This document shows, in pieces, positions 11,901 through 64,000 of a DNA stretch of 64,000 nucleotides; the first letter of the stretch is position 1; every line of letters begins with the position of its first letter. The notes under the pieces were generated by a model, which had not been told where the DNA came from, ran no database searches, and worked only from the letters and a program-made list of their open reading frames with translations. Origin of the DNA: Amoebophrya sp. A120 (taxonomy: Eukaryota > Protista > Dinoflagellata); NCBI GenBank assembly GCA_905178155.1, contig CAJINV010000001.1, forward strand, positions 419,643-483,642, written 5' to 3'. Made by a program: the position numbers and the translations under genes.

Positions 11901-12833
11901 CATGGTGCTAGGTTTTTTTATCATGTGAAAGTGAATCCCGTCAATAAAATTCGTTTTGAAGCAGTATACCTTCGTCAGCGCAGTGATGCCTTCGAACGGC
12001 TTTCCGGGGGTGCCTTCGAGCATCCATCTGCCATATTCCGGCATCCACGCGCACATGTCCGCTTCCGAAAGGCCGTGGCTTCGCCCATGCGCCTCGATGA
12101 GATGGAGGCATTGGACCTGACAAAAATTTGTTGAAACGAGATATTGTCGATTTGCCCAGCGGAGTGAAGTAGAACAAGACTCGTATCAATCTGTATATGC
12201 AAAAATGTTGGGCCACTCAGCCCCCAGTTGTCCACCTATTCTCGCACTTTATCGGTATCAAATCTCTCTTACCACTTCCGGCGACCGCAGTGAGATCTTC
12301 GGTCTTCTCTTCGGATCGCTCTCGTGCCCATCCAACTTGACCAGCTGGTACTCCACCTCGTCGCCGTACTTGAGCAGATCCCCCTTGATGCCCTTCGCTT
12401 CGAAAAACACGTTGATAAACTGCTCGATCCCGTGGTCCCGAACGTACTTGAGCTTCGGGAGCGCCTGCTCCCAACTCAAATATTACGAGGAAAAATCCCC
12501 CCTCCCCATATCGAAAAGGTATGCTTCCGGAAATTTGCGCTGCTGATTTGCGACCTCAAATCACGTCTGTCTTGCAAGAAGGCAACTCGACAAGCTACGC
12601 AGCATTGTGCAGGCGGTTTGTCATGCTGTTGAGCCAACATCACGGACGCTTTTCATGCTAAGCGCCTAAGTCAAAGCCTCTCTACTCAGGCTTGATATGG
12701 GTCTGCAGTCCTCTCCAGCAAGACAGACGCGATTTGTGTACTCAAATACAGCAACACAAATCTCGCTTTCGATATGGGGAGGGGGGATTTTTCCTCACAA
12801 TATCAAAGGGGTCGACTCGACCAAGAACCCCAT
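8961..12833 (-). CDS. GCLC: Glutamate-cysteine ligase catalytic subunit (gamma-glutamylcysteine synthetase, eukaryotic type) with a long C-terminal extension
   Basis: Motifs: MGFLVESTPLSWE, KYGDEVEY, WMPEYGRWMLEGTPG, HQRFKTLTQNIRERRG, DAMCFGMGCSALQVTFQ, HWENIQSTNWQSVRWKPP, GWRVEFRSMELQMTDFENAAF. GT-AG introns 10764-10944, 11827-11969, 12117-12272, plus one introner at 12481-12802. Confidence 0.95.
12481..12802. mobile_element. Introner/MITE family A (TIR TATTGTGAGGAAAAATCCCCCCTCCCCATATC), non-canonical intron in GCL
   Basis: About 36-bp TIRs with 2 mismatches; TSD TCAAA (12476-80 and 12803-07); removal gives TPL|SWEQ. Confidence 0.95.
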
Positions 12834-13424
12834 GGTGGGACGAGGGTGCTAATTATGGCTTCCACCGATTATTTTCATCCGTATGTTAGTTGAAAAAAGA
12901 CTTGTAGCTTACGTCGGAATAACGACTGGCGGGAGTGCGAGTGGGATGAAATTTTATGAAGCTGGACGAATTGCGTCCAGCCAAAACGAAGATTAGGCTC
13001 TGCTGTATGTTGTTCTGTTGAATGCGATATTTTTATCGCATGATGGACAGAAAATACCGTCGCATCTAAATACCAACATTGCTCTCGTGAAGGTGATCGT
13101 CCTGTGTATTTGTTTGATAACTCCTTTGCTTTGCACGTTTGCAACAAACGCTCGTTTTTCCAGTCTCGATGTTCGTATCTATCCCTCAAGAATCGTCCCC
13201 AAGAAAATATCAACCGACAAAAAACTCACAGCAGCTGAGATAGTGATAGTGCTACAACCTAGGGCCTGCAGGAAAAGAACATGTTGCGTGGTACGCTTGA
13301 ATCATTGGAGTTTGCTCCGTCTGGAATGGGAATGCGTTTTTGTCGTCTAGTGATAGTGTTGAGTTTATTTCGCACTCACCAGTTGTAACGCGGCGGTGGA
13401 CAGCGATATCTTCCGAAAGGCATC

Positions 13425-14735
13425 GTGCATTCGAGCTGCAATCTTGTGACTGCAATTTTCATTGGCTCGGTAGGGAGGAAAACTGTGTTCCCAAAGGCGG
13501 TTCGCTGTGCTTTTGGTTTTCGCAGTAAAAAAGAACTGAAGTACCTTTTTGGCACTGAAACGCAGTCAATCTTAGAACTACTAGAGCTGTGTTCTCATTA
13601 AATTCGAAACTAGCAAAATCATAGCGACTTTCAACCCCACCCGCCAAGGGCCGCAATTGCTACCTCTTCCGCAATGTGTCGGGCGGGCTGTTGACGTCGT
13701 GGCTTTACTCTACCCAAGGTGCTACCTTTGCCAACTGATTGCTCCCGCAAATGATCAACATAGCCGTAGGGAAGTTCGTGCTCGGATGCCGAAGTCTTCA
13801 CAGCCGTAAGCAATGGATTCGTTTGCGCGCCGGCCCACCACGAGCTAGTATCGGATCTCCCGAACCTGGCCGGAGTCCTCATTTGCTTCACCTCCTCCCG
13901 TCTTGGATCCAGATCCTCAATATCGAGCGAAAACTTGTTCCCCGTAGCTTCCTCCCCTGGTGTCGGGCTACTGCTGGTCTCGAAATGCACATACAGGCCA
14001 CGGTCCAAAGTAGGCTGTAGGTCGTGTGCAAAGAGACTGCTGCTCGACGAGGACGTGGGTTCTTGTTGAGCTGCTGCCATTTCTATCAGCGACCCCGAGC
14101 TGAGACTGTTCACGCCGGAAGGTGCGGCTGTTGACGAACAAAGCGTGTCGCTGCTGAAGCTCCGCTGCCTAATTTCTTCCTTTAGCCGGTGCAGTTCTTA
14201 TGCAATTCAAATTTCCTGTACATGTACAAAATGCATCACGAATTTCACCAACTTGGAGCATGCCACTTGTCATGCTATATCGAATTAAAAGGAAGCTTTG
14301 TCATGCAGAAACCGCATTTGTACATCATGTACAGGAAATGTACTGTGGATAGTTCTCCCACCGATACAACTTCGGCAGTGCTTTCCGACGCTTTTTTTAG
14401 AGGAGCTCCTTCGCCTACTGCTTTAGCTCGAGATGCCAGCAGAGAACCCGGAGAGGCGGCCGAGGTGAATAGTCGAAAGAGTTTGTTGACCTGCACTGGC
14501 TTCTTATAGTTGTTCCCTATCTGCAGCTTGTTCATCGAGACACGCGCCACAAGCGGCTCCTCGAGGTTCAGCGAATCGAACGTGGAAGCACCGGGCGGCC
14601 GCTCCTGTCGCTGCTCTGCGAGAAGCGCTCGCTCCCGGGGTCGAATGTCAAGGCGCCGTCCGAATGGGAGCAGTGAGGCTCCTGTTGTAAAAGCGGAGAG
14701 GTAGTTGGTTAGTTCTACTCACAGGCTCAGATTTT
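13425..14735 (+). repeat. Direct repeat copy 1 (about 1.3 kb) of the duplicated secreted-protein exon 2, part of its intron and 3' flank
   Basis: Near-identical to about 29575-30790, including non-coding tcgagctgcaatcttgtga...cattggctcg and gctcagatt. Confidence 0.9.
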
Positions 14736-15520: not shown

Positions 15521-18500
15521 TCAAGGCCGCGACTTCGCGGCGGCAGCTGGTTGCAGACCGTAGTATAAACCCGAGAAATCCCAGTCGGTTGGCGACTTTA
15601 TTCCGTCGTAATAAAACCCATCAACAGGAAGGAGCGAATTTCCCGGCCCGACTTCCTCCTTCGCTGCACGTTTCGCGGCCTGTGATCGCTTCCGTGGCTG
15701 CTTGACCAGAGAAAGAGATGCAGGTCGGTGAGTGGTACTGGTAGGATCTTGGGTTGTCGAGTGAGTAGAGGCTGGAGCCTTCACTTGGAGAGGCGCTCGG
15801 AAGGTCGAAGCGGGTGTCCCTTGTCCTTCAGCGGTCTTCTTCTCGAAGACTGTGCGTCCCACCCAGCGGTCACGCCCAGAGAGAAGATTTCGTCGCGGGT
15901 CTCCCTTGCCTCCGCGCCACTGGTCACGCAGTTCGAACAGCGCAGGCTCTCCGGCTGTCGGAGATTTATTTAAAAACCGATAGTACGTGACACGTCTGCC
16001 GCTGAGTTTCGAGGCATCAACTGCATCGCCGCCGCATACCTCTTCCGGCACAAATAGGCATGCCCTTCCCACCGTGTGCCAGCGAATAAACGAAGTCGGT
16101 GTCTCCGTCCACCGGTCGACATCGCTCAGCTCGGGTTGTCCACCAGCTGTTGGCACTTTTTGTTTTTCCCCGCCTTCCTTCGAACAAGAGTATGCAGAGT
16201 CGGCGCCGCTTTTGTGTTGCATCTCCTTCTCCAACCCTGGCCGCTGCTCTCGTGGCGAATCCGTTACGACAGCCTTGAAATTCCCATGCTCCCCTGCGGC
16301 CTGATGTGTCAACCGTGCCCCCGAAGCAGAGGTGCCCGCATTGCTTCCAAGGCCCGAGTGAACGCCTGTGCTCGTCGTGCCGATCGTCAATTGAGCACTT
16401 GCTGCGCTTCTTCCTCCTCGTGCTGCCAGCAGCGGATCTGCATCTGATGTTGGTTTTTCAAACGGGTCCAACCGGGGAAGCACGCCGCCAACCTGTGCGG
16501 ACGTCGCATGATCTTTGGTGGAGGTACTGCTTTGCCTAGACACGAGTGAAGCTTTGCATTTTTTCCCCGCGGTGGTATTGTCCTCGACGTTTCCGGCGGG
16601 AACGGCATTCGGGTTCTGCGTGCTGGAGCTTGGATCCTCTCGGCGGGCTCTCCTTGCAGCTGGAGAAGCTGCTCGCTCAGCAACTGCGACACTGTGCTCG
16701 TGTCCGTCTCCTCTCGCGTTCTCACCGTCGTTCTCGAACTCCGGCATGCAGTTCCTCAGCTCTTCTTCCCCAACAAGATGATCAAGATTTTTCTTTTTCA
16801 GGAGATCAAGGAGGTTTTCCATCATCTTTTCTTTATCGCGCTTTCTCCGCTTCTTTTCTGAACTTTCTACTGCGTTATTCCTTCGCTTGTCCGTTTCCTT
16901 GTTTTTGCTCACCTCGGGCGAGTCCGGTAATAATTTTTCGGCTGTTGTGTCTTTCTTCGCGCTGCTTGGCTCGATAGCAAGTGCAGGCTGGTTATTCGTT
17001 TCACCAACGTCAGGCTTCATCTCGTCCGCGAGTTCGTCCTCGAAGCACATTTTTCCACACACGACATCACCGTCCCCCGCGAGCTTCTCATCTGCAACCT
17101 CAAGCCTGGGAACTTCCTGCTCCACGGGATGCTCCGCACCGCCGGTGTTGCCGTTGATGCCCTCTAGCAGATTGTTGCTAGTACCCAACTCATTCTGATC
17201 CCGCACTGGCAAGGACCCCGCCCACAGCTCCTTGTTTGCTTCATCCGGGTCAAAAAACGAAGGCAACAACGCCTGTCCGTTCTGATTCTCGTCCTTGCCG
17301 CTCTCTCGAGGGGAGACGAGATCGAGATCGTGGGCCACGTCAGCAAAACCGTCTTCTTCCTCCATTTCGTCGTCCAGTTCGTCGTCAAGTGTGGCAAAAG
17401 ATAGTTGGACCCCCTTCGCTTTTCCGTCGGCCTTTTGTGGCAGCGCTGTCCACGACCAGCCTGGAAGCGCCTCGAGCTTGTCAACGTCTTCCTTTTCCAT
17501 CCGGTCCAGTTCGTGGTCCGTCATCTGTAGTATTTCCCATTGAAGCAAACGGCTTGGCAAGCTCTTCCGGATCTTGACTTTCTCCTCTTCCGTGAAGCTG
17601 CTGCTGTCAAAGGCATTGACTTGTGGTTTGCTGAGAACGAGTTCACAATACTGTTTCCGAAACTTTTCGCATTCTTCGTGCCGCAACTTCCATGACTCAG
17701 ACTCGTCTGCGAAAGTATGCTTGAGGTAAGAGAAGTCGCTCTGCTGCTGGTCCGGGAAGTATGCCTTGAAGGTCTCGTTGCGATTCAGATCACAACGAAC
17801 CGCCTCCAGAAAGATCTCGATCGTCGGATCAGCAAACGATGTATGAGCTCGCGTCGTAGCCTTCTTGGCACTCTTTCTCTTACTTTTCTTGTTCTGTCTG
17901 AGACTACTTTGTTCGTCAAACAGATCCCCCTGTTGCTGCTGATCGTCGTCGTCATCTTCCTCTATCATGTTATTCAAGTTGTTGGTCTTACTTGCCGCAT
18001 CGCCTTTTGAATCTCTGCCGGCGCCTCGTGGTCTATTGCTTGGCTTACAGAGGATGCCCTTAGAACCGTCCGAACGCTTCACCATGAAGATTTTGTCTAT
18101 CACTTCGTATTCTCCACACTCATCTGAACTTCCGCCCCTTCCGTCTGCAAAAGAAAGAACTGCAGAATCTTTATTCGGGTGTGGCGCAGAACCTGAAAGA
18201 ACGGGAATCGCACCAGAGGGACCGACCGGAGGACACTGCCCTTCGCGAGAGCTAGCTGCTCCGACATCACTTGAGCTTGCTACAATTGTGTTTCCAGCCT
18301 TGGGAAGTAGAAACGAGTTCTTTATTTCTCCTCCAGAGGCTGCCGAAATTTTCGTCACTCCGTCTGGAGGACCTGGGCGGCGGCGCGACGACCACGATGA
18401 ATCGAACACATTCGAGCTCTTCTTTCCTTCCGAACGCGATCGCGGGGAAACCGGAGACTCCGTCGAGGAATCGAGGGGGGGACTATGATCCTCCTGCGCT

Positions 18501-21500
18501 TTCTGTTGTCCTTCAAAGACCTGCAGAAGATCGGCCGCAGGAGGTGACGCCGGCAATAGTTGTTTCTCGTCCGTTTCAAACAGTTGCAGGCCCAGGCTCA
18601 CGCGCGAGCATGCGGACTTGGACAATTTCCGGGTCTCGCAGTTCTCGCCTTCGGATGCAAGCTCTTTGTTCTTAGCGGGGAGTAGCAAGAACCCCTTGGC
18701 CTTGCTCTTGCTCGCGGCCTTCGAACTTCTCTCGCTGGCCGCCGACCCCATTGCTTTTGCTTCTGCGAGTGGTCTGGGCTTCTCCAGCTCCGCCGTCCCT
18801 TTTTCGATGTCGAACGTCTCGATTGCTATGCCCCTTGCAAGTATCGCTTCGGCCGCTCTTCTCTCATGGTGTGGTGTCCCGCACGATTGCTGCAGTTCCT
18901 TGTCGAAATCCTCGGCGGCGACAAGAGTAGCAGCTTTACTTCCTGGGCCCTTCAGTCTTGGCGATCCGAGCATTTCATTGGCGTTCGAGAAGCTCAGCGC
19001 GTCCATAATGTCTGCACCTCCTACCTTCTCGACTATCCCGAGAAAAAAACTGTCTCTTTGCAGCGTTTACACTACAAGTTTGTTACAAACGGCAAAGAAA
19101 ACTTGTTTTACGCGTGCTTCCCAAGCGAAAATATGTCACTTAAGACCCAAAAAAAGTCTTGCATGTGGTCTAGCAGGACGTATGCGTCAGTGTCTGTGCT
19201 GCATCCTATGCATCGCAAGTTTACAGTGATGAAACAGTTTTTTCGTCCGATATCAACCGGGACCACTGCGTACCGATTCTTCTTGTTCCCCAAACCAATG
19301 AGCACGTTTTTCCACTTCGTCAGGCGGTCTTGCGCTGTTACGCCCAGGAAGCGTCTCTGCTGCGCGGGCGTCTTTGCTGAGATGCAGGCAAGACAGTGCG
19401 TGACGAGATGTAGCATGTTGATCTGCGACGGGTTTTCATCGTTGGAGCGAAAGACGTCGGCGGTGCGCACCGCATCGGATAATGCTGGCACATTGCTGCC
19501 ACCAGGCGGCGGCCTGTACAAGATGTTGCTAAAAAGCAGCAGCGCTTCGGGGTGCTTGCCTCCTTCTGGTGCCAGGATCGGCGCTTTCGGGTCGGCTCTC
19601 ATCACACGCGCGAACCGTTGCAGGTATTTCCCAATCTGATGTCGTGTTTGCAAGTTTAGTAGTGAATCCGTGATGTTGAAATAGATAATGATGCAAAATG
19701 AAAAAAACCTATTGGCTGCGGATCAGTTAGGCGCACTCATGCATGCGGACACCTACAAGAGAATCGGAAGAACAAGCACAAACAATCACTGCAAGTGAGA
19801 TGACTAGATCTAGACCCACTACGGTGGCATTTAGATTTAGAAAACAAGTACACACTAACGTTAGTGCGCACCAGCGGCAAAATAAATTAATACCAAATTG
19901 ATAAGTACCTGCTTTCCAGAGTGGGGGCTGGCACACTCCATGTCGCAGAAGAAAGCCATGTTGGCGTGAAACGTATCCACACCAAGCTTCAACATGTCGC
20001 AAGTGCAGAGGGCGTAAATGCCCTGCCCTTCGAGGGGACGGCGCTCGAACCGTGCGATCTTCTCCCCTCGTTCGGTAGTGCTGCAATCGTCGCGCGAATG
20101 CATCTTGTCCAGTTGAAGGGCCTCGCTCTTACCGAAGTCGTACTCCTTTCGTACCTTCTCGTACGCTTTCTCCTTGATTACTTTGCGGAACACCTGCCCG
20201 AAAATTTCTTGTGCCTCCGGCCCGGTCATGTCGTCAACGCTGATACTCTCCGACTCGTCCTCTGAGCTGCTCGTAGCGCTTTTACAAAATATGATGATGT
20301 TCCAGCATCCTTTGTACAGAGGGGTATTATCGAAGCACGCACGCGCCATCTTGGTAAAGTGCTGTCTTATCCGATCGAGCTTCGCTGCTCTTTTTATTTC
20401 CGCGTCCTTTCCCTTTGCCTTTGGATGCGCCTTTTTGCAAAAGGCTCGGTAATCTTTCAGTGCCTCGTCTTGACGGCTTGCCGCGCTGCCGGACAACATA
20501 TCACGAAGCACTTTCTCCATGGCCGGCCCGCTTTTGTTATCGTTTTCCGCAACGACTAGAGCAGTCTTAAGCTGGGCTCGCAGTTTCTTCACCGCGTGCC
20601 ACCCGAGCAATGACTCGCCAAAAAGGTTTGCCGCCTGCTGATAACAAGTTTCTTCTGCCGCGTTCATTTCCAAAGCGAGCTCGCCGACGCCGGCGGACGG
20701 CTCAAAACGCACCAGCGGATGGACATTACGCAGGCATTGCCACTCGATGCCATCACTCGCGGTGATTTCGTAGGCCAACGGGCCGAAGTGGGGACTTGCT
20801 TCGCCCACACCGTCGGCAAGAACCATTGGGATTTCTCCCTCGTTGTGAATCGTTCCGGTGTAAAACTCCCACAAGGTGCTGGCGTTGATTGGGTCGCTTG
20901 GGTTTTGGTTGTTGTCGGCGAAGATAGTTCGCGCGCGCTGGTCTGTGGTGAGATGCGCCTCGTCGAACACAACTCTAGCCCACTTATCGCCGACATCGGC
21001 CGCAATCTTACGCAGTTCGCCGAACGAGTCTAGTGTCGTCACGATGAGCTTTCTTCTTGTAACGCCGGTTACCCCCTGCTCTTTCCGCCAGTTGCTATAC
21101 TCTTTCTTCTGATCCTTACCATTCAAATGGGTGACTCGGCTGGCTGTCGCCCGTGCTTTGGCATCTGTGCCATTCATGCCCAAGGAGCAAAAAACGAAAG
21201 CGTCGTACTTTTCCGCAAGTTTTCCACTTCCTGTTCCTCCCCCAGCAGTACCAAAAGCAATCTTCTTGCACACGTAATTCGTCACAAAGCTATCCACGAG
21301 TCTCAAGGTCGGCAGCACGACGACGCTCGCTTTGTCGTTAAATGGAGGGGGTCGAGAAGCGGAGGAAGAAGAAGGCGGGGGACAGAGTAAGGTAGTGAGT
21401 CCGAATTTTTCAATTGTTTGCTGATCGATGTCTGTATCAGTGTACGCGTCCAGCAAAATGCGCGCACTAAATATCGAGGTCTTACCCAGACCGCAAAAAA

Positions 21501-22811
21501 TATTCAGCAGCGCTCTACCGCCTTGTGAGAGGCACGCCCCGCTCGCAGCGAGTGCACATCCCTGATATTCTCGTAGTCGTATGCCCGCCGCCTGAAATAC
21601 TGGGTGCGGCGGCACCCAATCCCGGGCCATTTGATGGCGGGGCAGGTCGTGGTGCAGAATCTCTTCACCCATCATGGGTGAAGATGTTCCAAATTCAGGC
21701 TGGTCATCTCTCCAGATGTCCATCGAGTCAGAGAAGGGATTTCCTTCCGGCTGTGGTGGACATGGCTCGACGCTGCCTTGTGCGCTCCCCTCCTCGACCT
21801 GTGGCCCGAAAGACGAACGACCTGCGCCTCGGTCTTTACCTCGGTCGTTCTCGCTGCTGGCACCTTTTAGTAATTCAACGCTGTCCGCCACTGGTCCGCC
21901 ACTGTCGTCCATCAGATTATTTTTGTTGAAGGATTATCAACTGCAGAAAGTGTGTGGGTTTGGACGAATGCCAGGTTTCTCATGCATGTTTTGCATAACC
22001 CATGATGCCTGTAATGCATGATGTTCCAAGAGCCTTGTGATGCATATGCCGCATGGGAAGCTCCCACACCGCGTCGCACCAACTGAACCCGTTTTGCTGG
22101 TCATGCAATACATTTCCTTTTTTTTTTTTAAATCCGAATTCAGCATGTCAAAATCCAACTTTCGAGAGGACACATTTTTGCAGTTGATACGGAGGAGCTT
22201 CGCGGCATCGCAGGCTTCATGTCCACCAGAAACAGGTTTGCCCCCCCGTCGTCTTTGTAATCGGACAGACCCAGACTTCCCTTGTTGTTCTGGTCGAGAA
22301 ACACGCGCTCCCTTTTCGCTGCGCCAGATGTGGCTCCGATGTCACACGGGGGCGCTACTCGCGCTAGTCGTGGGGACTGCAGGCGCGAAGTGATCTTCGG
22401 CGATTCATGTGCCGCGTCCTTGGTCGTCAAGCTGTAGGGCGCAGGCAGGTTGAGCGTCGAAGCAGGTGTCGCGGCATCATCTTCTCCTACTGTCCCCTTT
22501 ACACCTTTCGCCACTTGCTCCTCGATCGCACCGGGGGACTCCGTCTTGGAAATTGATTTACTCGAGTTAGAGGACGCGCCGTTCCTCTGTTGTAATTCCG
22601 CAACGTGGTCCGTGGACTCCTGCGGCCTTCCCTTCATCACGGCCAACGAGGAGGCTCCAGCTGCAGCGGCAGGAGTTCTCGCCACGGGGGCCCTCAGCTC
22701 TCCTCGTACTTCCCCAACGGTCCACCCATTCCTCCTGCGCACTTCGCCGCGCACTTCGCCCACGGTCCAGAGATCCGCTGGCTGTGGCCGCACGAACCGC
22801 CCGAAATTCAT
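15521..22811 (-). CDS. Superfamily-2 (ResIII/DEAH-like) helicase with a C-terminal helicase-associated (HA)-like domain, about 2200 aa
   Basis: LREYQ (Q motif), IFCGLGKT (I), VVLPTLRLV (Ia), VVFDEAH (II), YTGT (III), IIIFC (IV), LKLGVDT (V), QRFARVMR (VI-like, after GT-AG intron 19636-19908). HA-like WKLRHEECEKFRKQY...LLQWEILQ...DKLEALPGWSW. Introner 21935-22189 joins the 5' ORF. The junction near 19030-19224 is inferred, and its exact acceptor is uncertain. Confidence 0.7.
21935..22189. mobile_element. Introner family B (TIR TATCAANTGYAAAAATGTCTGGGTCTGGAAG), degenerate
   Basis: TIRs tatcaactgca.../...tgcagttgata; imperfect TSD AGGAT/CGGAG; removing 260 nt fuses ORF 22140..22826 in frame to 19861..21912. 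Confidence 0.85.
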
Positions 22812-42329: not shown

Positions 42330-42858
42330 AGGAGGGGGTAACGCATCGTTATAAGCATCTGAAGCAAAGAGAAGGGCAGGGTTGTGTGAGGTAAAGATCT
42401 TCGTCTTGACTTAGACTAGTGTCTTTGAACGATGTTAACGAGACAGAATTGCACGAGTAACACGCAAACACCAGAACGACATGCGCAGCACGAGAGATGT
42501 AAGTGCGTATGCGAACGAATGACGAACTCATGGTATGGCGACTTTTCATTCACCGATCAGGCGATAGATGAAACTGGTACTGAAACTTTTCTAAAAAGTT
42601 TTTCTGTCAACAAACTTAAAGCCAAACGCATGACCAACTCTGCAGAAAGCAACAGTCAGAGGTTGAAGAACCGATAGCAATGGAGGCACCAAGTTTCTTC
42701 GGAACACATTTCATTACCCGGCATACCGCGCCTGCGGTTTTCATCATAATTTCCATTTGTGCTTTTATTTTTGTGCGTCGCTCAAAATCTTCGCTCTATG
42801 CTTTATATGTCGTCGTGTGGTCGCGTTTACAACTATTTTGAACATTACGTCGTATGTA

Positions 42859-52897: not shown

Positions 52898-53220
52898 TAT
52901 GAAAAGGAAAAACCCCCCCTCCCCATATCAAAAAGGAAATCTGTGATCCTGGATTTGCGTACACAGTTCAGATTTGTATTGCAGGAAGGTATTGCGGCCA
53001 GATCCCCAGGCTAGGTAGGGGCGTATGGGTCTAGTTGCTCAGCATTGCAAACGGCTGACCTTTAGGCCCAACAGCATGGCAAATCGCTTCCATAATGGGC
53101 CGGAAGCTTCTGCCCTTGTCTTCTTGCAAGAGAAATGTGATTTGTGACCTCAAATCAGCAAAACAAATTTTCGGAAAGATACCTTTTCGATATGGGGAGG
53201 GGGGATTTTTCCTCTCAATA
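52898..53220. mobile_element. Family A element in a gene-poor region
   Basis: Family A TIRs; TSD TCATG (52893-97 and 53221-25); no convincing host gene. Confidence 0.92.
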
Positions 53221-55758
53221 TCATGGTCGATTTGATTCCTACATCTCGGACAGTGAATCAAGAAAATACGTATCGCTATCGCTTTGTTTGCTCCTTTGGT
53301 GATCTGTCCGACGAAACAAAATACGGTCAGCGACCCTTTAATAAGGTCTTCCCTTATGTGAGATATCGCTTCTCCTACTCTAGACTTAGAGCACGAGTGG
53401 TAACATTCATCCAAGGGATTAAGTTCGTGGCCGCGAGGCCAGGGAGCAAGCCTAGTGAATCAAAATTTTGACGCACTTACTGCTGTTGCCGGCATTTCGT
53501 CCTCATATTGTTCTGGGGTGTACTTATCTATCTCTGTAATTATTTCGTACAAGGTAAATACTAGCCATACTTTTCTGCTTCGTGAAAAACTGATTCAGCG
53601 TTCTTTTTTCGAGACCAATAGAAACGTAGGTCTAGTCACGTTCTGACTTCAAGTTCAGATACCATTTTGTGCCGCAAAAGTCGAAACCTTTGCCACACGC
53701 AATCTTGTCGACCTCGGGGTCGGCCCTCCGAGGACAGGCCTCCGCAGAGAGTTTTCTCGTCGCAAAAGCGCGACTACACTGTAAGCATAAAAATAAACTG
53801 AAATCCATTCCTGAATACCTGCGTAGCTTTGTTTTGCTTTTCATTCTTGTGTTAGGAAAAATAAAAATTGAAGTTCGTTGTGGCTTCGAGAAGGAAAATA
53901 AAAGAGCTGCAACGTATATTTTATGATATGACCACGAAGTTGTTTTCAGGTGCGAATTTTTTATCCCTAGATTCAGCACCAAAATCTTTATCTTTTGTTT
54001 CCATAAAATCGACTTTTCTACAATTATATTTCCGCTGGTGTATTGAAACTGACCCCTTCGCTGCCACGAAAACAAATGTCCGAAAACAGCGGGAGATGCA
54101 ACGTCAACTGATGTTGACAGTGGGGTAAAAATAAATATTAGGGCTAGGTATCGACTAAAGAGATTGGGACTTGGTGTGCTACCTCAAATGCACTTCCGAA
54201 CCGGTGCCAGCGCTTCTAGATCTGGCGTCATACAACGAAACCATCCATAATACATCAAGCGGTGGATGGTGTTTGCAGAAGCTGCTCGCGCTCATGCGTC
54301 TAGCTTTTCAACGACTAGCAAAAAAAAGAACTGAAAAAATCACACTCCGACATCACAGAGGACGTCAGAAGTGAATCTTACTTTGAGGGTGTGCTGTCAT
54401 TTGTATGTTCCTAAAAAAAAATGAAAATGCCGAGCCCGAGTCAGCGTAAAATCATTCGGGAAGATGAAGATGATGCATTTTTTCCAGAAATAGTGCCTAT
54501 GTGCCGATGAAATCAGGATAGCATATCAACTCTTGTTACATGCCCACTAGCAGAAAAAGTCATGTCAATATTTATTTTAGCAGAAAAGGTTTCATTATCG
54601 TTGAAGCAGAATGTAGTAAGCAGAATTGAAAGACAAGAGAATAAAGCAGGAGTTGCAACGAAATATCAATTTAGGTCTTGTGAAAGCATAAATTTCTCGA
54701 ACGCACGACCTGGTGCTAGATTGTGTACTCACTCTGGCCGGTGTACGTGTACGTACTTCTGGCAAATCGATATCAGCGGTCGCCTCAGCAATTGCACTTT
54801 TGCAAGAGCGATCCTGCGGCTGGTGTAAGTATGTCTGTAGTACAAAAAACCCAAGCAAAACTATCGAGAGATTATTTAATTTTTTTTCGTGAATCATCTT
54901 CAAAAAAGGTTGTAAAAATTTGAAAAAAAAAACAAACGAAACCCAAAAAGAAATCAAGTTTCTTAGTATGTTGGTTTTAGAAACTGCTCGATGGTCACTT
55001 TACTCGAAACTGGAAGTCAAGCCGGGAAGTACAGAGGGCAAGCTTCATTTCCGATGTATTTCTTACTGACGTATCATCATAGGATCCTGTTTGCTACTAC
55101 AGTCGTCTCACTCCATCGCTGCACTTCCAGTATTTGACTCCGCATGATAGGCTCCTGCTCACGACAAGCTAAGTTACTAACTGTCATTTCATCTCGCAAG
55201 GTTTTTTTTTTGTGCCGGGGCCTCCTGATACTGTTTCTCATTATGACAGCTTCTGTGGAGCTTTTGTCCTCTATCACTTCTCGCGCTCCCCTCGTGCCGC
55301 AGCTACAAGTGTAGTCCTATCTTCCGGGGGTAGTAAGTACTCATGATCAGATCTCATCTATCATGCCCACGAGAGGAAGAAAAAAATCGAGGGGTCCTCT
55401 GCCTTGGCAACTATAGTACCATTTGCAATACCTGAAGGTGGGGAAAGAATCCTTATTTCGTGCTAGAGAAGTAGGTAACATGCAAGAAATCAGTGCTGGA
55501 AATGGAGGTTGTGTCTGTCTACTTGCAGCTCAGATCTAAAAATTCATCAGCAACATGGTACACAAAAATCACAAAATTCGTATATTACCTTCGGCTCTCT
55601 TCGCCTCTTCCAGTTTCTGTAATTCGCGAGCCACTTCCTTGGCTCGGGTGGTGATCTTTATCAGATTCTCCCGTGTCAAAGGATACGCTTGCTGTGAATG
55701 ATTTTTCGATTTCAAATAATTTGTTTTTTTCCTCAATTGATCGCTTCTTCTATTATTT

Positions 55759-57621
55759 TCATGCATATGCATTCTGTAAGTATTCATCCAAAACCAGATC
55801 ACTCACGAGCTTCGAAAATAAAGGGTGAGAATCCATGACAAGCAACCACTCGTCAAGAACATGGACCTCTGTATTGAAACAGTACCCATTCACTCTTGCT
55901 ACTCCACCCGAATACGAGCGGCAGGAAGAAGGGATTTTGGATTCGGTTGGTATCCCTTCGCAGAAACCGTGCAACGTTCTCCTCAAGACCCTGCTTTCCG
56001 GCGGCGCAGATCTCCAAAATCTTCGAGGTTGCATACCTGAATGTAGGTGCGGGAAGAAGTGATCGGATTTAGCACCACTGGATAAAGTCCAAAAATACCA
56101 TTTTGTGTCGACCGGCATTTTCTTCAGCCTCCGCCTGTCACAAGAACGATCACGTAGGTATCATAATGAACAAAGATAACAGTTTCAACACGAACACAAA
56201 AAAAAGTTCTAGTACTTGGGCAGTTTGGTGTCATGAAACTCCTTCGCGAACCGCTCCATGTGCTTGGGCGCCAGAAAATTGAGGAACGCGTAGCCCATGT
56301 TCACCTTGTTAGCGAAGTTATGAGAGTGCACAACTCCCCCTCGTTCTCATTTGTCATGCAAAATCCCAAATCCAGTCGCTGCCTTGTAGCATTATTGTGC
56401 ATGACAGATTCCGGAAGCCCAAACAGTACTATAATACGTGCGTGAGTCTTGTCATGCACAGGCTCCACGCGTGCGGGTGCTTGTAATATTGTTGTTCATG
56501 CAATACAAATGAGGGGAAGTGGAAATTGTGCACTGTCATAGAAGTCGATCGGGAGGTAGAAGTAATTGTACGTCTTGTAGAACCCGCGGGAGTCGATTTC
56601 TTGCAACACGTCTTCGGTGGTGTAGCGGTTGGGGATGTTCCGGATCATCACCGTGGTCACCTTCGAGTCCTTCGCCCAGGCGGTGTCGCGATCAATGGTC
56701 GCCAGCCGCTGCGGGCAGTACCGCAGCGTGTCCTGCAACTCCCGGGCGGGGCACTTGTTCGCCGCGAGCGGGCCCTGGTCGTTCAGCACCGGGTCAAAGT
56801 CGTCACAGCCGCCCTGATGCGCCTCCGCAAGCTGCTGTTGCTGCAGCTCCATGCCCATCTGGCCAACGCGACCGACTAGATTGATGCCGCTATAGATTGC
56901 AAATATATCTGGGTCTGCGAGATTGCGAGACATGTCATGCTAGTCTGGCATAACTCTGGGATCTGTATTGCGTGGCAACCAAGAGCTCCTCTTGACTGTC
57001 ATGCAAACACGCAGTTTCTCATGCGGAATACGCAACACAGAAGCATGACAAAACTTGTCATGCTTGACGGCGCATTACAGTGTGGTTATTATTCAGTGAC
57101 CTGCATCACAACTTTCCAGCCCCAGACATATTCGCATTTAATAGCCGCAACCGGACCGCAATTCCGACACCGTGGTCACGATGCCACCTGAGAAGATCAT
57201 AGTAAGACTGCGCTTGTACTAGTCTTTTTTTCGATGGAGAATGAATGAAAAACAAAATGAAACCTGCTTTATTGCATGATCACAAAATAAATAATTTCAA
57301 CAAACACAACCCAAGAACCGCATCCTTACCTTTCGTCTCCCCCGGCGCCCGCTGTTCGCCACCGATGAGGCGAGTGTACCACCGCCCTGCGGCAGAGATC
57401 AAACCGCCCTTCATGAGGCTCGACCCGGCACCTTCTTCCCGGTAGTCAGGACTGTTCCCCGGAGACGGGATTGACGTCGCCACCGGACTGGTCAGGTCGC
57501 CTGGGGTACGCTTATCGTTCGTGTGAGCCTTGTTGTACAGGATGTGTGGCGGTGTGGACCTGGGAAGGTGGTTCAGAGCAGTTCTTTTCGTTATAATACT
57601 CCCTGTTCGTGCAGAGCGCAT
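55759..57621 (-). CDS. Mei2-like RNA-binding protein (RRM_2 / Mei2 RRM3 domain)
   Basis: TTVMIRNIPNRYT...YNYFYLPIDF|ANKVNMGYAFLNF...K|YATSKILEICAAGKQGLEENV...PLVF. GT-AG introns 57188-57329 and 56037-56215, plus two introners. Stop is either 55853 or, with one more intron, 55759. Confidence 0.88.
56319..56540. mobile_element. Introner family J (TIR TATGANAGTGCACAAYT...CTCATTTGT)
   Basis: TSD GAAGT; splits LPIDF|ANK within the RRM. Confidence 0.93.
56891..57143. mobile_element. Introner family B
   Basis: TSD GCCGC; removal gives SGCG|INLV. Confidence 0.9.
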
Positions 57622-58309
57622 CTCCAAATAAACACGAAAACCAAATAAAGGGACAAAACATCAAGAAACAACTAACAACTCACAAAATGAAGCAACTTCG
57701 GGCAGACAAAAAAACGCGAGGCCAAGAAAGAACCAACTCTGGGGTCTTCTTCTCACATCGCCGTGCTCTTCGCTCACTCCTTCGCTTTATTGCTCAGAGT
57801 CTGCTCGGTCGTGTGGGCTACTTATATATATTTCCTTAGTTGTAAGTATGCGGGTACTTAAATTGAATTTTCAGATCTTCGCGTTATTCGCGTTGCGTCC
57901 TACTACAGTATGGTGGTTTTTATGACATTTGAAATTTTTGGGTCTTCGAGTTGGAAGTGAGGAAATAAAGATCTGCACGTTTACGAAACGTAGAATCCAC
58001 CCCTCGCCAACGCAACAAATCACCACGAAGATTTTTCGTGAAACCACACAAGACGGACGCCGGCACAGCAGTAGAAACCGTCAGTGACGCACAGACAGAA
58101 GCGACGCAGAAGCCGAGGAAGCGGAAGTAGATGCGGTGTAGTTTATTGTCTTGCTCCTCGATACCGATAGGGCAGCATGTTGACCATATGCGAAAGACTC
58201 TGCTACCGCTTGTTGATCTTCTGCTTGAAGAGGTTGTACACGACGTGTTCATCATGAAAGAAGAAGAAGAAGAAGTACACTAGCAGCTGATGAACCTTTA
58301 AGTTTATTA

Positions 58310-61300
58310 TCAATACTTCTTGTAGTTCCTTTTTTTCCGCGGTAGTATCACGCCGCACCAGCCCCGCCGCTTACTCGCTTTCTTCGCCAACGGCCGGGGT
58401 AGGATCTTAATCATCAGGTTGATGAAGCCCGGTTCCTCGCGCTTGCGGTTCGACACGATGATCGGCTCCGGCGTCATCCCGCGCAACACCAAGTCATCCT
58501 CTTTCGCGGGCTTGTACCACTGGAAATCGCCCACGTGCCCGTAGGGGTTGTGGGGCCCGTGCATTTCCTCCTTGGGGTTCACGCACCCGACGCAGGACAG
58601 AACGTGGTCTTCCAAGTGGAACATGGGGGGCACCTCGGTGCCCGGGGACCGGAGGGGCATCACCGCCGGTGAATCCTCCCCCTCGTCCCACTGCTCGTCC
58701 TCGATCCAGACGTAGCCCGACCGTTGCAGATCCAACTGCGCGTCCTTCAGCAGCGTTTTCTCATACATCAGCACCTGCATATCCAGCGCCTCGTGGTCGT
58801 TTTCATGCGGAACGATCTTTTGAATGTTCTTCAAAAAATCCCGATCCAACTTCCGGCGAAAGTACTCCTCGTTTCGCTCCACGTTCGGGTCCTCGTCATC
58901 CTCGCTGTCATTCTCGTCGTCTCCTACGTAGCTGTCGTCGTGCGCGCTAGCTTTCTCCCTTTTCCGTTTCTCGTAATTTGACTCGGTGTCGCTTTCGTTC
59001 TCCGTTTCATCTTCCTCTCCGGGGGGTGCATCGAAGTTGAGAAAATTTGACAGCTGCTTCTTTCGCCACTTGGCTTGATGTTCGGCGTGGTTCTGCGAGT
59101 AGGAGATCGACGCGCGGCCCGTGGCCCGGTGCATCGCATCCTCGAGGTTATTTGACTGGTGGAAAGAAGTTCGGGCTAGCTTGATCGAGTTCGTTTTCAG
59201 CTGCGCAACAAGCGGATTCGACGCGACGCTCGTCCGCGAGTTGTAGTTGGCCTCCTGCTCGGAACGCTTCCGGCTGCCTGGCTGCTGGTGAGCAGGACTC
59301 TGCAGCGACAAAACCAGCGAGTCGTCGTTTTTAACTACATTTTCTGACTCGATATCAATTTCCTCTAGCTTGTCGTCTTGTTCCACCCGGCCGTGTTCGT
59401 TAGATGTAGAGGACGCTGCCGCCAAGCGCTGTAAGAGAAGGCCTTTCTGCTCCATCCCCGGTGCCTCGTTGTCGTTAGATTTATTTGTTGTGATATTTTT
59501 ACCTGCATTTCGTTCTTTCCCTTCTGCTTCTTGTTCTTCACACACTGCTATTGAATTCTTCGTCGCTAATTGTAATTCTGCTGCATCTCCGAGATGATTC
59601 CCGTCCTGCTTGCCTTTTTCTTCTGCTTTTTTTCCTACTCCTGCTTCAACGATAATGTCTGCTTTATTTCCTTCTGCTTCCGTACTACTGCTAGTGAGTG
59701 TCTTTTGCAACTTTGTGCTAATATTGTCCTGATTTTCGTTTTCCTCGGCCACATTTCGATTTTCTTCACACGTGGTTGTGGTAGTACTATCATTGGTCTT
59801 TTCGAGAACCAACACATCTTCATTCGTTAGGTGTAGTCGATCTTTACTACTCTGGAAGTTCTTCTTTTCAGCATCCTCCACCTCGATTATTGTGAGGAAA
59901 AGTCCCCCCCTCCCCATATCAAAACGAAAATTTGTGATGCGGGTTTTGTGTACACAAATCCAATATGTCTTGCAGCAGAGGACTGCAGGCAGACGCAGTG
60001 CCTGAGTAGGGCCGCTGTTCTGTAGGCGCCTAGCAAGGCAGGCATGTCCTCTGTAGGCGGTACAGCATTACAAAGTGCCTGCGAAACGCGGCTGATTTCC
60101 TGCCTTTGCCCTCTTGCAACACACGGACGATTTGTGGTCACAAATCAGCATCACAAATTTTCAGTAGTGCCCCTGTTTGGCATGGGGAGAGGGAATTTTT
60201 CCTCACAATATCGATCTTATTTCCGTCACTGTCTTTCTCCGCGGTCTTCATCTTCATCAGTTTCGACGCGACCAATATGCATTGCAAATATGTGCGGGTG
60301 ACTGTACCTTGGATGAGTGCAGATGTCTGTAAGCTCTAATGCAGTTTTTGCATGACACAGAGTGTCTGGCATGCAGAGACCAGCGTCACAGGTTCTTCGA
60401 GAGCTCCATGTTGATGCCTCCTCTGCATGAGAAATCCGCTCTCACCATGACCACAAATAAACATCTTTTGCTGTTTTTGCAAAACAAATTTTTCTGTGAT
60501 CTGAAATGCGCATCACAAGTTGCAACCCTTCAGACCCAGACATATTTGCACTTGATAACCAACTTCGCCGCCGCTGCCGCAGAGGACGACAAAGTAGCCG
60601 AAGATGACGACGCACCCGCGGCGCTGCCCGCCATTTTGCTTTCCAGCTCCTCGCGCATCTTCAAGCACAGCCGCTCGGACTCGCTCGTTCGCCCGGGGGG
60701 AAGGCTGTCGACCAGCTTTTTCTGCCTTTCCTATGAACTGCAAAAGTATCGCACTCGTATAAATGCATTACAAATTTTCTCAGCATGAGAAATAAAATTT
60801 GTGATGCTGATTTGCCTTGACAAAGAAATTTGTAATGAAAGACCTGCATTTATACGAGTACGATACTTTTGCACAGCATATTTCCTTTTCCAAAGCAATT
60901 TCGTACCCCTTCATCATGTATCAAATGCAAATATGTGTGGGTCTGGAAAGGTTGAATCTGTGCTGCGTGTTTCGCACTGCTAAAAAATTTGTATTGCATA
61001 CGCAACAAACAAAGCACCACACTTTCGTCATGCAAAAACGCAGTTTGTAATGCGTCCTGCGCATGACAGGGCATGCTTTGTCATTTGTCATGCTGCACTG
61101 CAGTTAAAGGCACGCTCAATCATGGCCGTTCAGCATTACAAGTTTCCAGACCCAACCATGTTTGCATTTGATATCATGCGCCGCGCGATGGTGTAAGCCG
61201 CTTCCAGCGTCCGCTTCTGGCGGTAGTCGAGGTTCGTGTATTACAATGAAAAATGCCCCCACCCTCATACTTGGGAGCATTTGTGTTGCCAACCTTTCCA

Positions 61301-64000
61301 AATGAAACACTCGCCCTCCTGCATCTATCAGCATCACAGGTTTCCAATCGTGAATAGCAAAAATTTGCATTGCAAAAGACCCCAGCAAGAGCGGCGCTTG
61401 TCATGCAAGCGATGCAATACACGCCTTGACTCTGCATCAGAAAGATTCATACTCCTTTCATGCAAAGTTTTCATTTGGAAACTTCGCATCACAAATTCTT
61501 GTAACTTTGGGGGTGGGGGCGTTTTTCACTGTAATATCGTGTGGTCCGGCTTTTCCTTCAAAATCTCCCGGATCCTTCGCATGTGCCGCCCCTTCTTCAG
61601 CGATGAACAATCGGCGTCTTGTGAGCCAGAAGCTTTCGCGCCGGCTTTCCGCTCCGCTGCAGCTGTTGTGGTTCCACTAGTGATGTTGGTACCATCGTTG
61701 GCTCCTTCCTCGTCTTTATTCAAGGCTGCATTTGTTTCATCTTCGTCCTCGTCATCGTCCAGGTTAAGCACGGCCGCCGCGCCATGAAGATTCTCCGCAT
61801 CTTCCTCCTCCAACGCCAGCGTGTCCGCGCGGTTCCGTATTGTGAAGAAAAATCCCCCCTCCCCATATCGAACAAGAAATTTGTGATGCTGACCTGTGAT
61901 CACAAATCAGATTTATCTTGCGTACATGGCAAACAGACCCACGTGGCGCCTTGTGCAGCCAGTCTGTCATGCGTTTTCGCCTATGTCAGGCTTGTTTCTC
62001 ATGCTCAGCTGCGAGCCGGATGCATAGTACCCAAATGGGCTTAGAATATGCCGACAAGCACAAGCTCTTCCTGCAATACAAAGTTCATGTGTGTACACAA
62101 ATCCAGCAACACAAATTGTCTTTTGAGTATGGGATGGGGGCTTTTTTCACTTTGATATTCCGCCGGGCGTCGTAGGCCCGCACCATCTCCTGCCGCTCCT
62201 CCGCCTCGCGCTCCTTCCGTTTCTCCCGCTTCTTGGCCCGTTTCGCGGCACGCTTACTGACCGGCTTGTCGCCCTCCTTCACCTCGTCGTCGGAGTTGAT
62301 ATCACTGTCCTCGTCGTCGTCCTTCTTCCGCTCGTCGGTGCAATTCAGCGTCTCGATGTCCCACAGCGCGTTCAACTCCGTGGCCTGGTTGAAGATCGGC
62401 CCTTTACTGTTCGAGCCGAAGGCGGAGAACAACCCGCCCGGCCCGGCGAACGCCGACCGGTCGCCGAAACACAGAATTTTGCCGCCCTTGCTGTTCTTCA
62501 TGGCCTGGCCCCAGGAGGCCGCCCAGGGCATATCCAGACACCCGCGGTCGTGCCGCGCAAACCCGTGTTTCCCCCCGGTGGAAGTTGTTGTATTATTTGT
62601 AAAAACGTCCCCACCCCAGAGTCAAGATGGGGATTTTGCAACACAAACCTGAAAGTTTTCGTTTTGGGAGCCACGCATGACAAGTTGCACGCTGTAGTGT
62701 AATGCCGTTTCGCAAGGGAAGCCGCATAACAAATCCATCTCCTTATCCTGTTGACAGCATTACAACTTCCAAAACACGATGGGACATGCCTCTCATGGGG
62801 ATGCGCATTACAAATGCTCTTGTGCTTGCAGAACTGCATGACAACTCTGGGGTGGGGATGTTTTTGCACAGGATATGTTGCGCCCGCATCCTCGTAAAAC
62901 GTCTGCGGCGCGTCGCCCTCCTCATTCACCGTCGGGAGCTCGGAAGAAGTACTTGCGCCCGTAGTACCTACCGCTGCAGCAGATGAAGCGCCACTGCTCA
63001 AACCGGCACCTGCACGCGGATTACTATTTTCAACACCTCCGCCAACTACACGAGCCGCAGCTGCAGCCGCGCCATCGTGGCCGAACTGATGTTGTTGTGC
63101 ACCAAAACCTCCGCCTGAATCGTTGTTCAGTCGATCTACTAAGGAATGTTGCTGATGACCCGCAGGAGCTGTGGATGAGTTAGTGGTCATCGTTCCACCA
63201 CACATCAGGAGTTGGTTGTTTTTCCCCGCGGGGGCTGCATCCGGACCACCACCAGCAAGGTACGAACTAGCGGTGGAACCCCCTGCTCCCGGAAGATGTT
63301 GAAGGTGCTGACCGTACTGGCTGGACGCTCCTGGAATAGCACCTCCACCCCCACCGAAACCTCCTTTCGACCCGTTGCTGGCGTACTCAGGCACGTCCGG
63401 GAGGTGAAACCGATTGGCGCTGGGTGTCCCGTTTTTGTTCTTGTCGCCCCCGCGCGGGGTGCAATAGAACATGGAAAAGTAACTGCTCGTGGCGTCACTG
63501 TTGTAGCAGTTGGACAAACCGTGGCCAGTATAAACTGCAAGAAATATGTCTGGGTCTAGAAGATTCTGAGACCTGTCATGCACGTTTTGCCGCGTAAGCC
63601 ATGACGTCAGTGATGCATGCGCTAGCATCACAGATTTTTTGAGGGCTTCTTAATGCCTATTCTGCATGACAAATGCCCTCCCCACGCAGCAAAAATTGGA
63701 ATTGCACTCCCTTGCTTCTCGTGCACTACAGATTTTCTTGGAATCCAAATGCAGCATCACAAGTTACATCCTTCCATACCCAGACATTTTTACACTTGAT
63801 AGCCAGTGGATCCATTTTCGTTCGCACCGGGGAAGTGCGGGGCGAAGGGGTCCATGCTGGCGTGGGTGTGCGCGAAGGGGAAGTTGTTGCGCTGCAACCA
63901 CACGGGCTCGTGCGAGTTTGGGTTGGTCCCCCCGTTTATCAAATGCAAAAATGTCTGGGTCTGGAAGAATGCGCGACTTGTCATGCAGCTTTTCCATGAC
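58310..64000 (-). CDS. Large hypothetical protein, 5' end beyond the window, interrupted by 9 introners
   Basis: Removing each of the 8 complete elements plus one TSD gives one continuous frame (...GSTG|HGLS...GAT|TSTGG...ARR|NRAD...DHT|NLDY...RRM|MKGY...EKE|RQKK...AKL|VASK...KI|EVEDAEKK...) to the stop at 58310. Confidence 0.85.
59888..60210. mobile_element. Introner family A
   Basis: TSD TCGAT. Confidence 0.93.
60276..60557. mobile_element. Introner family B
   Basis: TSD ACCAA. Confidence 0.9.
60732..60880. mobile_element. Introner family G (TIR TATGNNNTGCAAAAGTATCGYACTCGTATAAATGCA), shortest element at 149 bp
   Basis: 36-bp TIRs; TSD TTTCC. Confidence 0.93.
60919..61173. mobile_element. 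Introner family B
   Basis: TSD TCATG. Confidence 0.93.
61239..61536. mobile_element. Introner family E
   Basis: TSD TCGTG; interior highly similar to 34331-34639. Confidence 0.95.
61838..62157. mobile_element. Introner family A
   Basis: TSD TTCCG; right TIR degenerate. Confidence 0.9.
62591..62875. mobile_element. Introner family D
   Basis: TSD TGTTG; interior similar to 38467-38748. Confidence 0.92.
63529..63801. mobile_element. Introner family B
   Basis: TSD GCCAG. Confidence 0.93.
63937..64000. mobile_element. Introner family B, truncated by the window edge
   Basis: Left TIR tatcaaatgcaaaaatgtctgggtctggaag. Confidence 0.85.

Follow-up and report, generated by a model that had tools for sequence, protein, structure and literature searches.

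Elements and interrupted genes in the window

The window, by which we mean the whole 64-kb stretch of DNA analyzed, carries a series of genes interrupted by short elements with TAT...ATA ends. Its GC content is 51.1%, against 51.2% for Amoebophrya sp. A120, and its GCL protein has its best match, of 861, in Amoebophrya sp. A25 (74%). All identified host genes are on one strand, and the host DNA of every element in the window is transcribed from the minus strand.

We scanned for TAT...ATA ends that close a pair of inverted-repeat arms and are flanked by a 5-bp direct repeat. The 64-kb window yielded 38 candidates, the repeat being perfect in 23, and each of five shuffled controls gave 0 perfect-repeat matches. 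After dropping overlapping duplicates and weak pairs (e.g., 47448-47779, which has weak arms), rejecting 32754-32933 as exon sequence, and adding an element with a TGT end (25482-25758), we retained 29 complete elements of 149-323 bp (mean 260 bp), plus one truncated by the window end (63937-64000). An earlier note on this DNA had described the size range and the ends, TAT...ATA with one TGT, correctly, but had counted 28 complete elements. It was also right about the 5-bp direct repeats, although five rather than four are imperfect (those of 19034, 21935, 28276, 47071, and 47956, with mismatches falling at positions 1, 2, 3, 4, and 5) and 24 are perfect.

The element at 12481-12802 (322 bp, perfect repeat) lies in GCL exon 1, and once it is taken out, GCL residues 1-9 connect with the remainder in register with homologues. 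Unnamed ORFs hold elements at 14199-14351 (153 bp, perfect repeat) and, in a long ORF, at 19034-19252 (219 bp, one repeat mismatch), and a helicase-like ORF with a weak ResIII match holds one at 21935-22189 (255 bp, repeat mismatches at positions 1 and 5). A cellular RdRP gene is interrupted three times, at 25482-25758 (277 bp, perfect repeat, TGT at one end), 27163-27425 (263 bp), and 28276-28487 (212 bp, one repeat mismatch). Three elements (33091-33342, 252 bp; 33408-33669, 262 bp; 34331-34639, 309 bp) interrupt a gene that we take, from its motifs, to be DPAGT1-like. In the WD40 gene region we found 36366-36574 (209 bp), 37721-37891 (171 bp, within a WD40 repeat), and 38467-38748 (282 bp). 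A GOST 7TM gene contains 45901-46164 (264 bp) and 46733-47002 (270 bp), and further elements lie at 47071-47384 (314 bp) and 47956-48218 (263 bp), each with one repeat mismatch, and at 48291-48559 (269 bp). The element at 52898-53220 (323 bp) is situated in a transcribed stretch of 43% GC that has no long ORF, and that at 56319-56540 (222 bp) splits an RRM_2 domain, so that its removal joins profile positions 2-39 to 41-69. The remaining ones are at 56891-57143 (253 bp), 59888-60210 (323 bp), 60276-60557 (282 bp), 60732-60880 (149 bp), 60919-61173 (255 bp), 61239-61536 (298 bp), 61838-62157 (320 bp), 62591-62875 (285 bp), and 63529-63801 (273 bp). The transcript interrupted by 56891 also has two canonical GT-AG introns on the minus strand, at 57188-57329 (142 bp) and 57560-58316 (757 bp).

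Pfam matches for the other interrupted exons were to RdRP, WD40, and the GOST 7TM domain. Of the conserved motifs in which the earlier note saw the frame restored, GCL and the RRM were joined correctly on removal, and Pfam supports the name RdRP; the names DPAGT1 (one exon tested, no Pfam match) and POC1 (generic WD40 only), presumed from motifs, received no specific Pfam support.

The elements are short and non-coding, with terminal inverted repeats (TIRs) and a target site duplication (TSD) of fixed length, as MITEs are. They are multicopy: in sequencing run X1 element depth exceeds flank depth by a factor of hundreds to thousands, and for 27 of the 28 window elements tested, 131 metagenome loci contain relatives that cover 80% or more of the element. 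Both the 56 window ends and a set of 294 elements show the same profile, TAT followed by 7 variable positions and then AAA. The A-run near position 11, reported previously, is evident in the 56 ends, of which 89-92% have A at each of positions 11-13. The 5' and 3' ends share this one profile, with no donor/acceptor asymmetry.

The introners that Farhat et al. (PMC7789003, 2021) described from A120, as far as the available text goes, have ends of TAT, 7 variable nt, and at least AAA, are ~240 nt long, form hairpins, and contain no internal transposase; their direct repeats are given as 3-5 nt, the legend of Fig. S19 specifying 5 bp. The same text mentions genes with mixed intron types and co-oriented gene blocks, and proposes an alternative splicing mechanism. 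By these features, the window elements are the already described A120-type introners, from which we see no difference in kind, and the earlier suspicion of Amoebophrya introners proved sound in end motif, 5-bp repeat, hairpin, and mixed genes. A strictly 5-bp, directly adjacent repeat and the quantified orientation independence and absence of target bias are what our analysis contributes, such numbers not appearing in the available text of PMC7789003. In the portion of the tables of Gozashti et al. (PMC12130899, 2025) at hand, 21 of 58 A120 rows, most families are classed as "TIR DNA, Unknown" and about half have non-canonical ends; family lengths of 149, 252-261, 305, and 319-322 bp resemble those of our elements, a comparison by table description rather than by sequence.

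Removal from transcripts and splice-site options

Read-through of the elements had been excluded in the earlier note, and we concur, since the removed length is not divisible by 3 for 24 of the 29 elements and the other five carry stops in all three minus-strand frames. In transcript-type contigs from runs X4 and X5, the element and one repeat copy are missing for 10 of the 16 elements in the stretch compared. Three of these were seen as direct, exact junctions: 45901 and 62591 in X4 contigs, and 52898 in X4 and X5 contigs. The other seven follow from exact length sums, 618 = 618 for six elements (59888, 60276, 60732, 60919, 61239, and 61838) and 272 = 272 for 56891 together with its two GT-AG introns. 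One boundary was seen for 46733 (in X4) and for 63529. GT-AG introns are likewise absent from the same contigs, and it is from this loss that we guess the RNA status of X4 and X5. The related elements 52898 and 61838, which are oppositely oriented, are both missing from one contig, and the removal of 52898 is precise despite the lack of a long ORF around it. Retention of the elements or use of cryptic GT-AG sites, the outcomes named beforehand as speaking against precise excision, was not seen in contigs at the 10 informative elements, and the picture of precise non-GT-AG removal alongside normal introns is borne out. The raw RNA run X9 gave 18 partial reads, all at one TIR, which are uninformative for this genotype. 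We consider it very likely that the elements are Amoebophrya introners and that they are removed at the RNA level.

Because the flanking repeat allows several sequence-equivalent cuts, we asked which ends each element could be given. The GT-AG or GC-AG ends of U2 introns are available to 2 of the 29 elements (27163, GT-AG; 36366, GC-AG), where the earlier note had 2 of 27, and both use one register; 2 more allow GA-AG, 4 allow AT-AC, and 21 none of these. GA-AG or AT-AC ends could also be assigned to all three elements whose skips were seen directly, and for five elements with no canonical-like option removal rests on the length sums. A frame-keeping GT-AG pair within ~25 nt of the ends is present for 21 of 29 elements and absent for 8. 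A cut after repeat position 3 (donor GA, GC, or GT) was hinted at in the window, where G occupies position 4 in 42% of 24 sites and both canonical cases fall there, but 226 sites from the loci did not support it (G 0.36 vs 0.26-0.38 in the flanks). In 58 imperfect-repeat sites, neither a stop-codon constraint nor a consistent base-composition signal placed the cut, and the exon next to 21935 gave no match when used to search for homologues.

Target duplication, element ends, and probable transposon origin

Among TIR pairs found blind to the repeat in the 131 metagenome loci, an exact 5-bp repeat flanks 245 of 331, an exact 4-bp repeat 1, and an exact 6-bp repeat 0. The repeat sequence is arbitrary, as previously stated: 226 oriented sites showed no splice-like base bias or dinucleotide enrichment. 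Elements are inserted in either orientation (47:42 in the largest family), which fits a symmetric signal. A scan in which TAT was optional yielded 363 pairs, 47 of which did not have TAT at both ends; we read ~24 of these as real single-end variants, mostly TAC, and the others as register shifts. The middle A of TAT is altered in only 2 of the scanned pairs, and TGT occurs at 2 ends only. Such invariance cannot separate a transposase constraint from a splicing constraint. No loci matching the window flanks, i.e. possible empty sites, were found among the metagenome loci, and the TIR motif had 0 matches in viral contigs.

The elements are likely non-autonomous DNA transposons. The available text of PMC7789003 opposes general mobilization by a transposase because none was found in A120. 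The hunt for a transposase in long elements, which had been suggested, saw none in 533 kb of metagenome loci, where elements of up to 2,940 bp have no long ORF, and the window ORFs scanned (23 stretches) contain no transposase family. Ginger/TDD integrase-type transposons have a 4-5 bp duplication, TGT...ACA ends, and an integrase-like transposase. Their duplication is like the 5 bp of the window elements and TGT...ACA is one transition from TAT...ATA, but the ends here are TAT...ATA and no transposase was found, so we treat Ginger/TDD kinship as a lead only. A candidate mobilizer is family 38 of PMC12130899, whose TIRs enclose Copia/Gypsy-like ORFs; as far as that source was available, it is without Ginger homology, termini, and TSDs.

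In the predicted folds, 20 or more of the first 30 nt pair with the opposite end in 25 of 29 elements. Element 27163 has a long predicted hairpin (-111.5 kcal/mol, z = -11), and in the predicted fold of 25482 none of the first 30 nt pairs with the far end. The earlier note had inferred that the paired TIR stem is recognized by a separate, second excision pathway; neither part is established. Mismatches between the arms show no G-U bias (264 G-U vs 237 A-C, p = 0.25) and hence lend no specific support to recognition of a paired RNA stem or to RNA-level selection on pairing. The arms match in only 51-69% of cases at positions 4, 5, and 7, and positions 4-7 often differ. A branch motif is not in excess at the 3' end (149 vs 162 of 294).

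Possible routes of removal

We propose that A120-type introners are excised from pre-mRNA by a modified spliceosome for which the symmetric TAT-N7-AAA ends, rather than GT-AG, are the probable guide. The elements would be inserted through a 5-bp staggered cut by an integrase-like enzyme whose gene lies elsewhere; in the RNA, the arms would fold back and draw the two copies of the repeat close to each other; an end-reading factor would place the cut a constant distance away, inside the repeat or at its edge; and a U2/U5/U6 core acting without U1 would carry out catalysis. With a cut at a fixed distance, one repeat copy would stay and the mRNA would be restored whatever the target sequence. Nearly all spliceosomal proteins and U2, U4, U5, and U6 are reported from A120 in the available text of PMC7789003, U1 not being detected. 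We give the whole chain, catalysis included, about an even chance of being correct. Symmetric ends, without donor/acceptor asymmetry or branch-motif excess, are unlike spliceosomal substrates and count against spliceosomal catalysis.

A second route at the RNA level, which we hold possible if less probable, would dispense with the spliceosome: an endonuclease reading structure or ends would cut both repeats at a set distance and a ligase would join the exons. tRNA and IRE1/RtcB splicing are comparison systems that combine an endonuclease with a ligase. Symmetric ends, tolerance of both orientations, arbitrary junction bases, and the lack of branch-site asymmetry agree with such a route, as does the precise removal of 52898 outside any long ORF. 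However, transposon origin alone accounts for the symmetry, no G-U signature points to selection on RNA pairing, the same transcripts are processed by a U2-type spliceosome that the organism possesses, and neither an enzyme nor circles or end chemistry were seen. The broadest form, a nuclear mRNA pathway in which an end-reading endonuclease and a ligase excise any TAT-N7-AAA hairpin element in any context and either orientation, even from non-coding sequence, seems to us less likely than not; if true, it would make transposon insertion into genes scarless, and the pathway would be new, though the question is already in print.

Excision from DNA in a transcriptionally active stage, as with ciliate IESs, is very improbable. 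Precise transposon excision also leaves a loss of the element and one repeat, the life stage of X1, X4, and X5 is unrecorded, and contigs drop rare variants. Yet in X1, a DNA-like run, each of the 8 longest listed pieces passes unbroken from flank into an element end, with no differences and at full depth (40-44), and element-free DNA was not seen among the pieces listed; the kind of X1 is unrecorded, it may be the window's own source, and this view covers 15 of ~1,910 joints. X4 and X5 also hold contigs joining element ends to other flanks, loose ends that are expected of unspliced RNA, though DNA carry-over looks alike, and a separate metagenome assembly retains hundreds of elements in place. 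Amoebophrya is not known to have a second nucleus. Ordinary splicing that uses cryptic GT-AG sites close to the ends, or a survival limited to insertions offering usable dinucleotides, is the least probable of all and largely refuted at the 10 informative elements: the frame-keeping pairs near 21 elements and the two compatible cases in one register would suit it, but the junctions and length sums fit exact removal, 8 elements have no cryptic pair, 21 have no canonical-like equivalent cut, and the 226 target sites lack dinucleotide enrichment.

For the modified spliceosome, Fritillaria is cited as a precedent of spliceosomal non-canonical introns (via the available part of PMC11282704). The MITE-derived introns of Fritillaria borealis and the introners of Micromonas, Aureococcus, and Polarella resemble ours in their MITE-like origin and in making an intron on insertion, but keep specific dinucleotides (AG-AC/AG-AT, or GT/GC-AG), whereas the junction bases in the window are arbitrary (PMC11282704, PMC7789003, in the parts available). 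Euglena nonconventional introns, with a paired motif at fixed spacing and excision by unknown machinery, offer a parallel for an endonuclease and ligase (PMC12501133, in part). Such euglenid introns share paired ends, junction repeats, lack of GT-AG, and conventional introns alongside, but their code is CAG/CTG pairing at a set spacing plus a purine at the exon start, compared with TAT-N7-AAA at both ends and a strict 5-bp repeat here, in an unrelated lineage (PMC12501133, PMC11282704, in part).

Refinding the elements adds little, because both they and the question they raise have been in print since 2021. What matters is the way in which a eukaryote disposes of introns by the tens of thousands when their boundary bases are arbitrary. 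Whether the answer is a spliceosome indifferent to GT-AG or a distinct pathway, it would be of interest to RNA biologists, and could possibly provide a scarless, context-free intron for engineering. To this question the window adds constraints, namely that the duplication is strictly 5 bp, that targets show no bias, that elements occur in both orientations, and that removal is precise outside coding sequence; its five imperfect repeats, with mismatches spread over positions 1-5, could locate the cut.

Introner elements in the window and their published counterparts

We scanned the window for TAT...ATA ends whose arms resemble each other and which are flanked by a 5-bp repeat, and obtained 38 candidates, 23 of which had a perfect repeat; each of five shuffles gave 0 perfect matches. 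We then dropped duplicates that overlapped, weak pairs and a false call at 32754-32933, which is exon sequence, and added 25482-25758, with a TGT end. The final set comprises 29 complete elements, 149-323 bp long and 260 bp on average, 24 with perfect and 5 with imperfect direct repeats, plus one truncated by the window end, in agreement with the earlier note's description of TAT...ATA elements between 5-bp repeats.

All host genes identified in the window lie on the minus strand. The claim that deleting an element plus one repeat restores the frame was borne out: such deletion leaves 1,154 codons open across eight elements (58313-63999) and 1,590 codons open after removal of three elements from a gene for a cellular RNA-dependent RNA polymerase (RdRP, PF05183; 23443-28979), brings the N-terminus of GCL into register with its homologues, and joins positions 39 and 41 of the RRM_2 domain. 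The removed length is not a multiple of three in 24 of the 29 cases, and in the other 5 every minus-strand frame is interrupted by stops. When sequence-equivalent cuts are considered, GT-AG is available to 1 element, GC-AG to 1, GA-AG to 2 and AT-AC to 4, leaving 21 with nothing canonical-like; the claim that few allow GT-AG or GC-AG ends thus stands at 2 of 29.

These elements are real, well described and now partly RNA-checked, and constitute a rediscovery of the published Amoebophrya introners. PMC7789003 reports that non-canonical introns exceed 60% of introns and that 29,850 A120 introns are repeated introner elements, whose inverted repeats open with TAT, continue with seven nucleotides of lower conservation and then have 3 A or more, with direct repeats of 3-5 nt. 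It also describes hairpins, both intron types in one gene and undetected U1, proposes an alternate splicing mechanism, and found no transposase in A120 in its own search; the words "excision" and "lariat" are absent from its main text. Our elements agree in their TAT/A-run ends, direct repeats and mixed-intron genes, and the window matches A120 in GC content (51.1 versus 51.2%) and in its long blocks of co-oriented genes. For GCL, the best of 861 relatives carries the annotation Amoebophrya sp. A25 (74%), with most of the rest at 42-58%. We therefore assign the window to an Amoebophrya of the A120 type. Among 21 of the 58 A120 table rows of PMC12130899, most families are classed as TIR (terminal inverted repeat) DNA of unknown type, and family 38 has Copia/Gypsy-like ORFs within its TIRs. 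PMC11282704 reviews the Amoebophrya case beside Fritillaria, Polarella and euglenids, and PMC12501133 defines the Euglena code.

Removal from transcripts

Contigs of four sequencing runs were compared with 44501-64000, which holds 16 complete elements. The RNA status of runs X4 and X5 was guessed; because elements and GT-AG introns are missing from the same contigs, we take these to be cDNA. They skip exactly the element and one repeat at 45901, 52898 (X4 and X5) and 62591. An X4 contig spans 59882-62158 in 618 nt, the exact sum expected with six elements gone, and an X5 contig spans 56885-58315 in 272 nt, the exact sum for loss of one element and two GT-AG introns (757 and 142 bp). For three further elements one boundary fits, the displayed contigs bearing on 13 of the 16. 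The RNA check called for in the earlier note therefore came out partly, with exact removal at 3 elements directly and 7 by length sum, that is 10 of 16, and from contigs. All three direct skips are GA-AG- or AT-AC-compatible, so it is the length sums that carry the cases lacking any canonical-like option. The stretch that holds element 52898 has 43% GC and a longest Met-ORF of 100 codons, and removal precision therefore does not seem to depend on reading frame. Removal at the RNA level is well supported, though not proven for all stages.

A single X4 contig of 8,607 nt (52443-63523) covers the RRM_2 exons together with the long ORF on the minus strand and an AT-rich region that lacks long ORFs, and an X5 contig extends transcription to 49593, representing a very long 3' UTR or a read-through transcript. 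Raw RNA reads of X9, another sample under the same species label, gave 18 partial matches, uninformative on these genes. They carry a TIR related to 63937-63968 with different flanks, so this family is likely present in other genotypes.

Related metagenome loci and the symmetry of element ends

With one TIR motif as query, 132 loci were retrieved from metagenome contigs (a single source assembly for the 80 listed) and none from viral contigs; 131 were analysed (533 kb). Near-full-length relatives, up to 98% identical, were found for 27 of 28 window elements tested, and none of the loci shares the window flanks. Among 331 TIR pairs found blind to the repeat, an exact 5-bp repeat adjoins 245 and a 5-bp repeat with a single mismatch adjoins 39, whereas 1 has an exact 4-bp repeat and 0 an exact 6-bp repeat; inner false pairs account for some of the rest.

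To assign strand we used a coding model (per-element accuracy 22/29 in the window) and then a locus vote (agreement 274/295). At 226 oriented perfect sites, splice-like base bias was absent at every position. Families occur in both orientations (47:42, 10:12, 13:14, 8:13, 11:6, 5:3 and 4:1), as they also do in the window, whose strand is known for certain. The 5' and 3' ends share one profile (TAT, variable positions 4-10, A-run at 11-13), and the 3' end shows no excess of a branch-like motif over the 5' end (149 versus 162 of 294). The arms match at 97-98% over the A-run, and their mismatches show no G-U bias (264 versus 237, p = 0.25). Strand misassignment would blur these tests of asymmetry. 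End variants are mostly TAC, with some CAT, GAT and AAT and rare TGT; the triplet's middle A is most constant.

One locus carries a 2,940-bp element in a coding exon (L067:6259-9198); its 43-bp arms match perfectly, as do the two copies of its 5-bp repeat. The non-coding interior, which has no long ORF, contains hairpins, recurring TIR sub-motifs and a nested inverted-repeat unit. This suggests a very young insertion, and the removal system may manage kilobase elements. Four more long elements (496-1,045 bp) have perfect 5-bp repeats (L067:3180-4224, L029:5001-5972, L062:3096-3834 and L030:8956-9451), three enlarged by unique or low-complexity interior and none with a clear ORF. At L003:2123-2341 and L026:5329-5608 the direct repeat lies 3 nt from TAT or is 8 bp long, and we regard these as aberrant insertions.

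Mechanism of insertion and removal

The fixed 5-bp duplication and the TIRs point to insertion in trans by a transposase or integrase of the cut-and-paste kind; the sequences examined contained no transposase for the elements. Since neither the junction bases nor the orientation is constrained, the removal signal probably resides in the symmetric ends. The main value lies in the splicing chemistry, for which the window narrows the options without deciding among them; a literature search, mostly without subscription papers, found no paper settling the Amoebophrya removal machinery. We favour, at about even odds, a U1-less spliceosome guided by the element ends, because the rest of the spliceosome is reported intact and there is a tunicate precedent. 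Removal by a protein endonuclease-ligase route is a close second, a serious if somewhat less probable contender, because the ends lack donor/acceptor asymmetry. Excision from DNA is improbable: in X1, a run of unrecorded kind whose depth over unique DNA is even at about 45-50, the eight longest pieces listed cross from flank into element ends with 0 differences, which speaks against element-free DNA being common in that sample, within the limits that X1 is possibly the window's own source, that contigs lose rare variants and that the display covered 15 of about 1,910 joints. Cryptic GT-AG splicing is marginally less credible still. Indirect sequence tests gave no answer on the cut position inside the 5-bp repeat, and none of the displayed RNA junctions lies over an imperfect repeat.

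Elsewhere, the minus strand has long ORFs (about 880-1,970 codons) at 1-5919, 15524-19722 and 39780-42410, and Pfam gave no match for the stretches of them that were scanned. The RdRP gene points to an RNAi pathway in the parasite. An element-free gene at 42862-44883 encodes the second-step splicing factor Prp18 (PF02840 and PF08799), worth comparing for changes tied to relaxed 3' splice-site choice.
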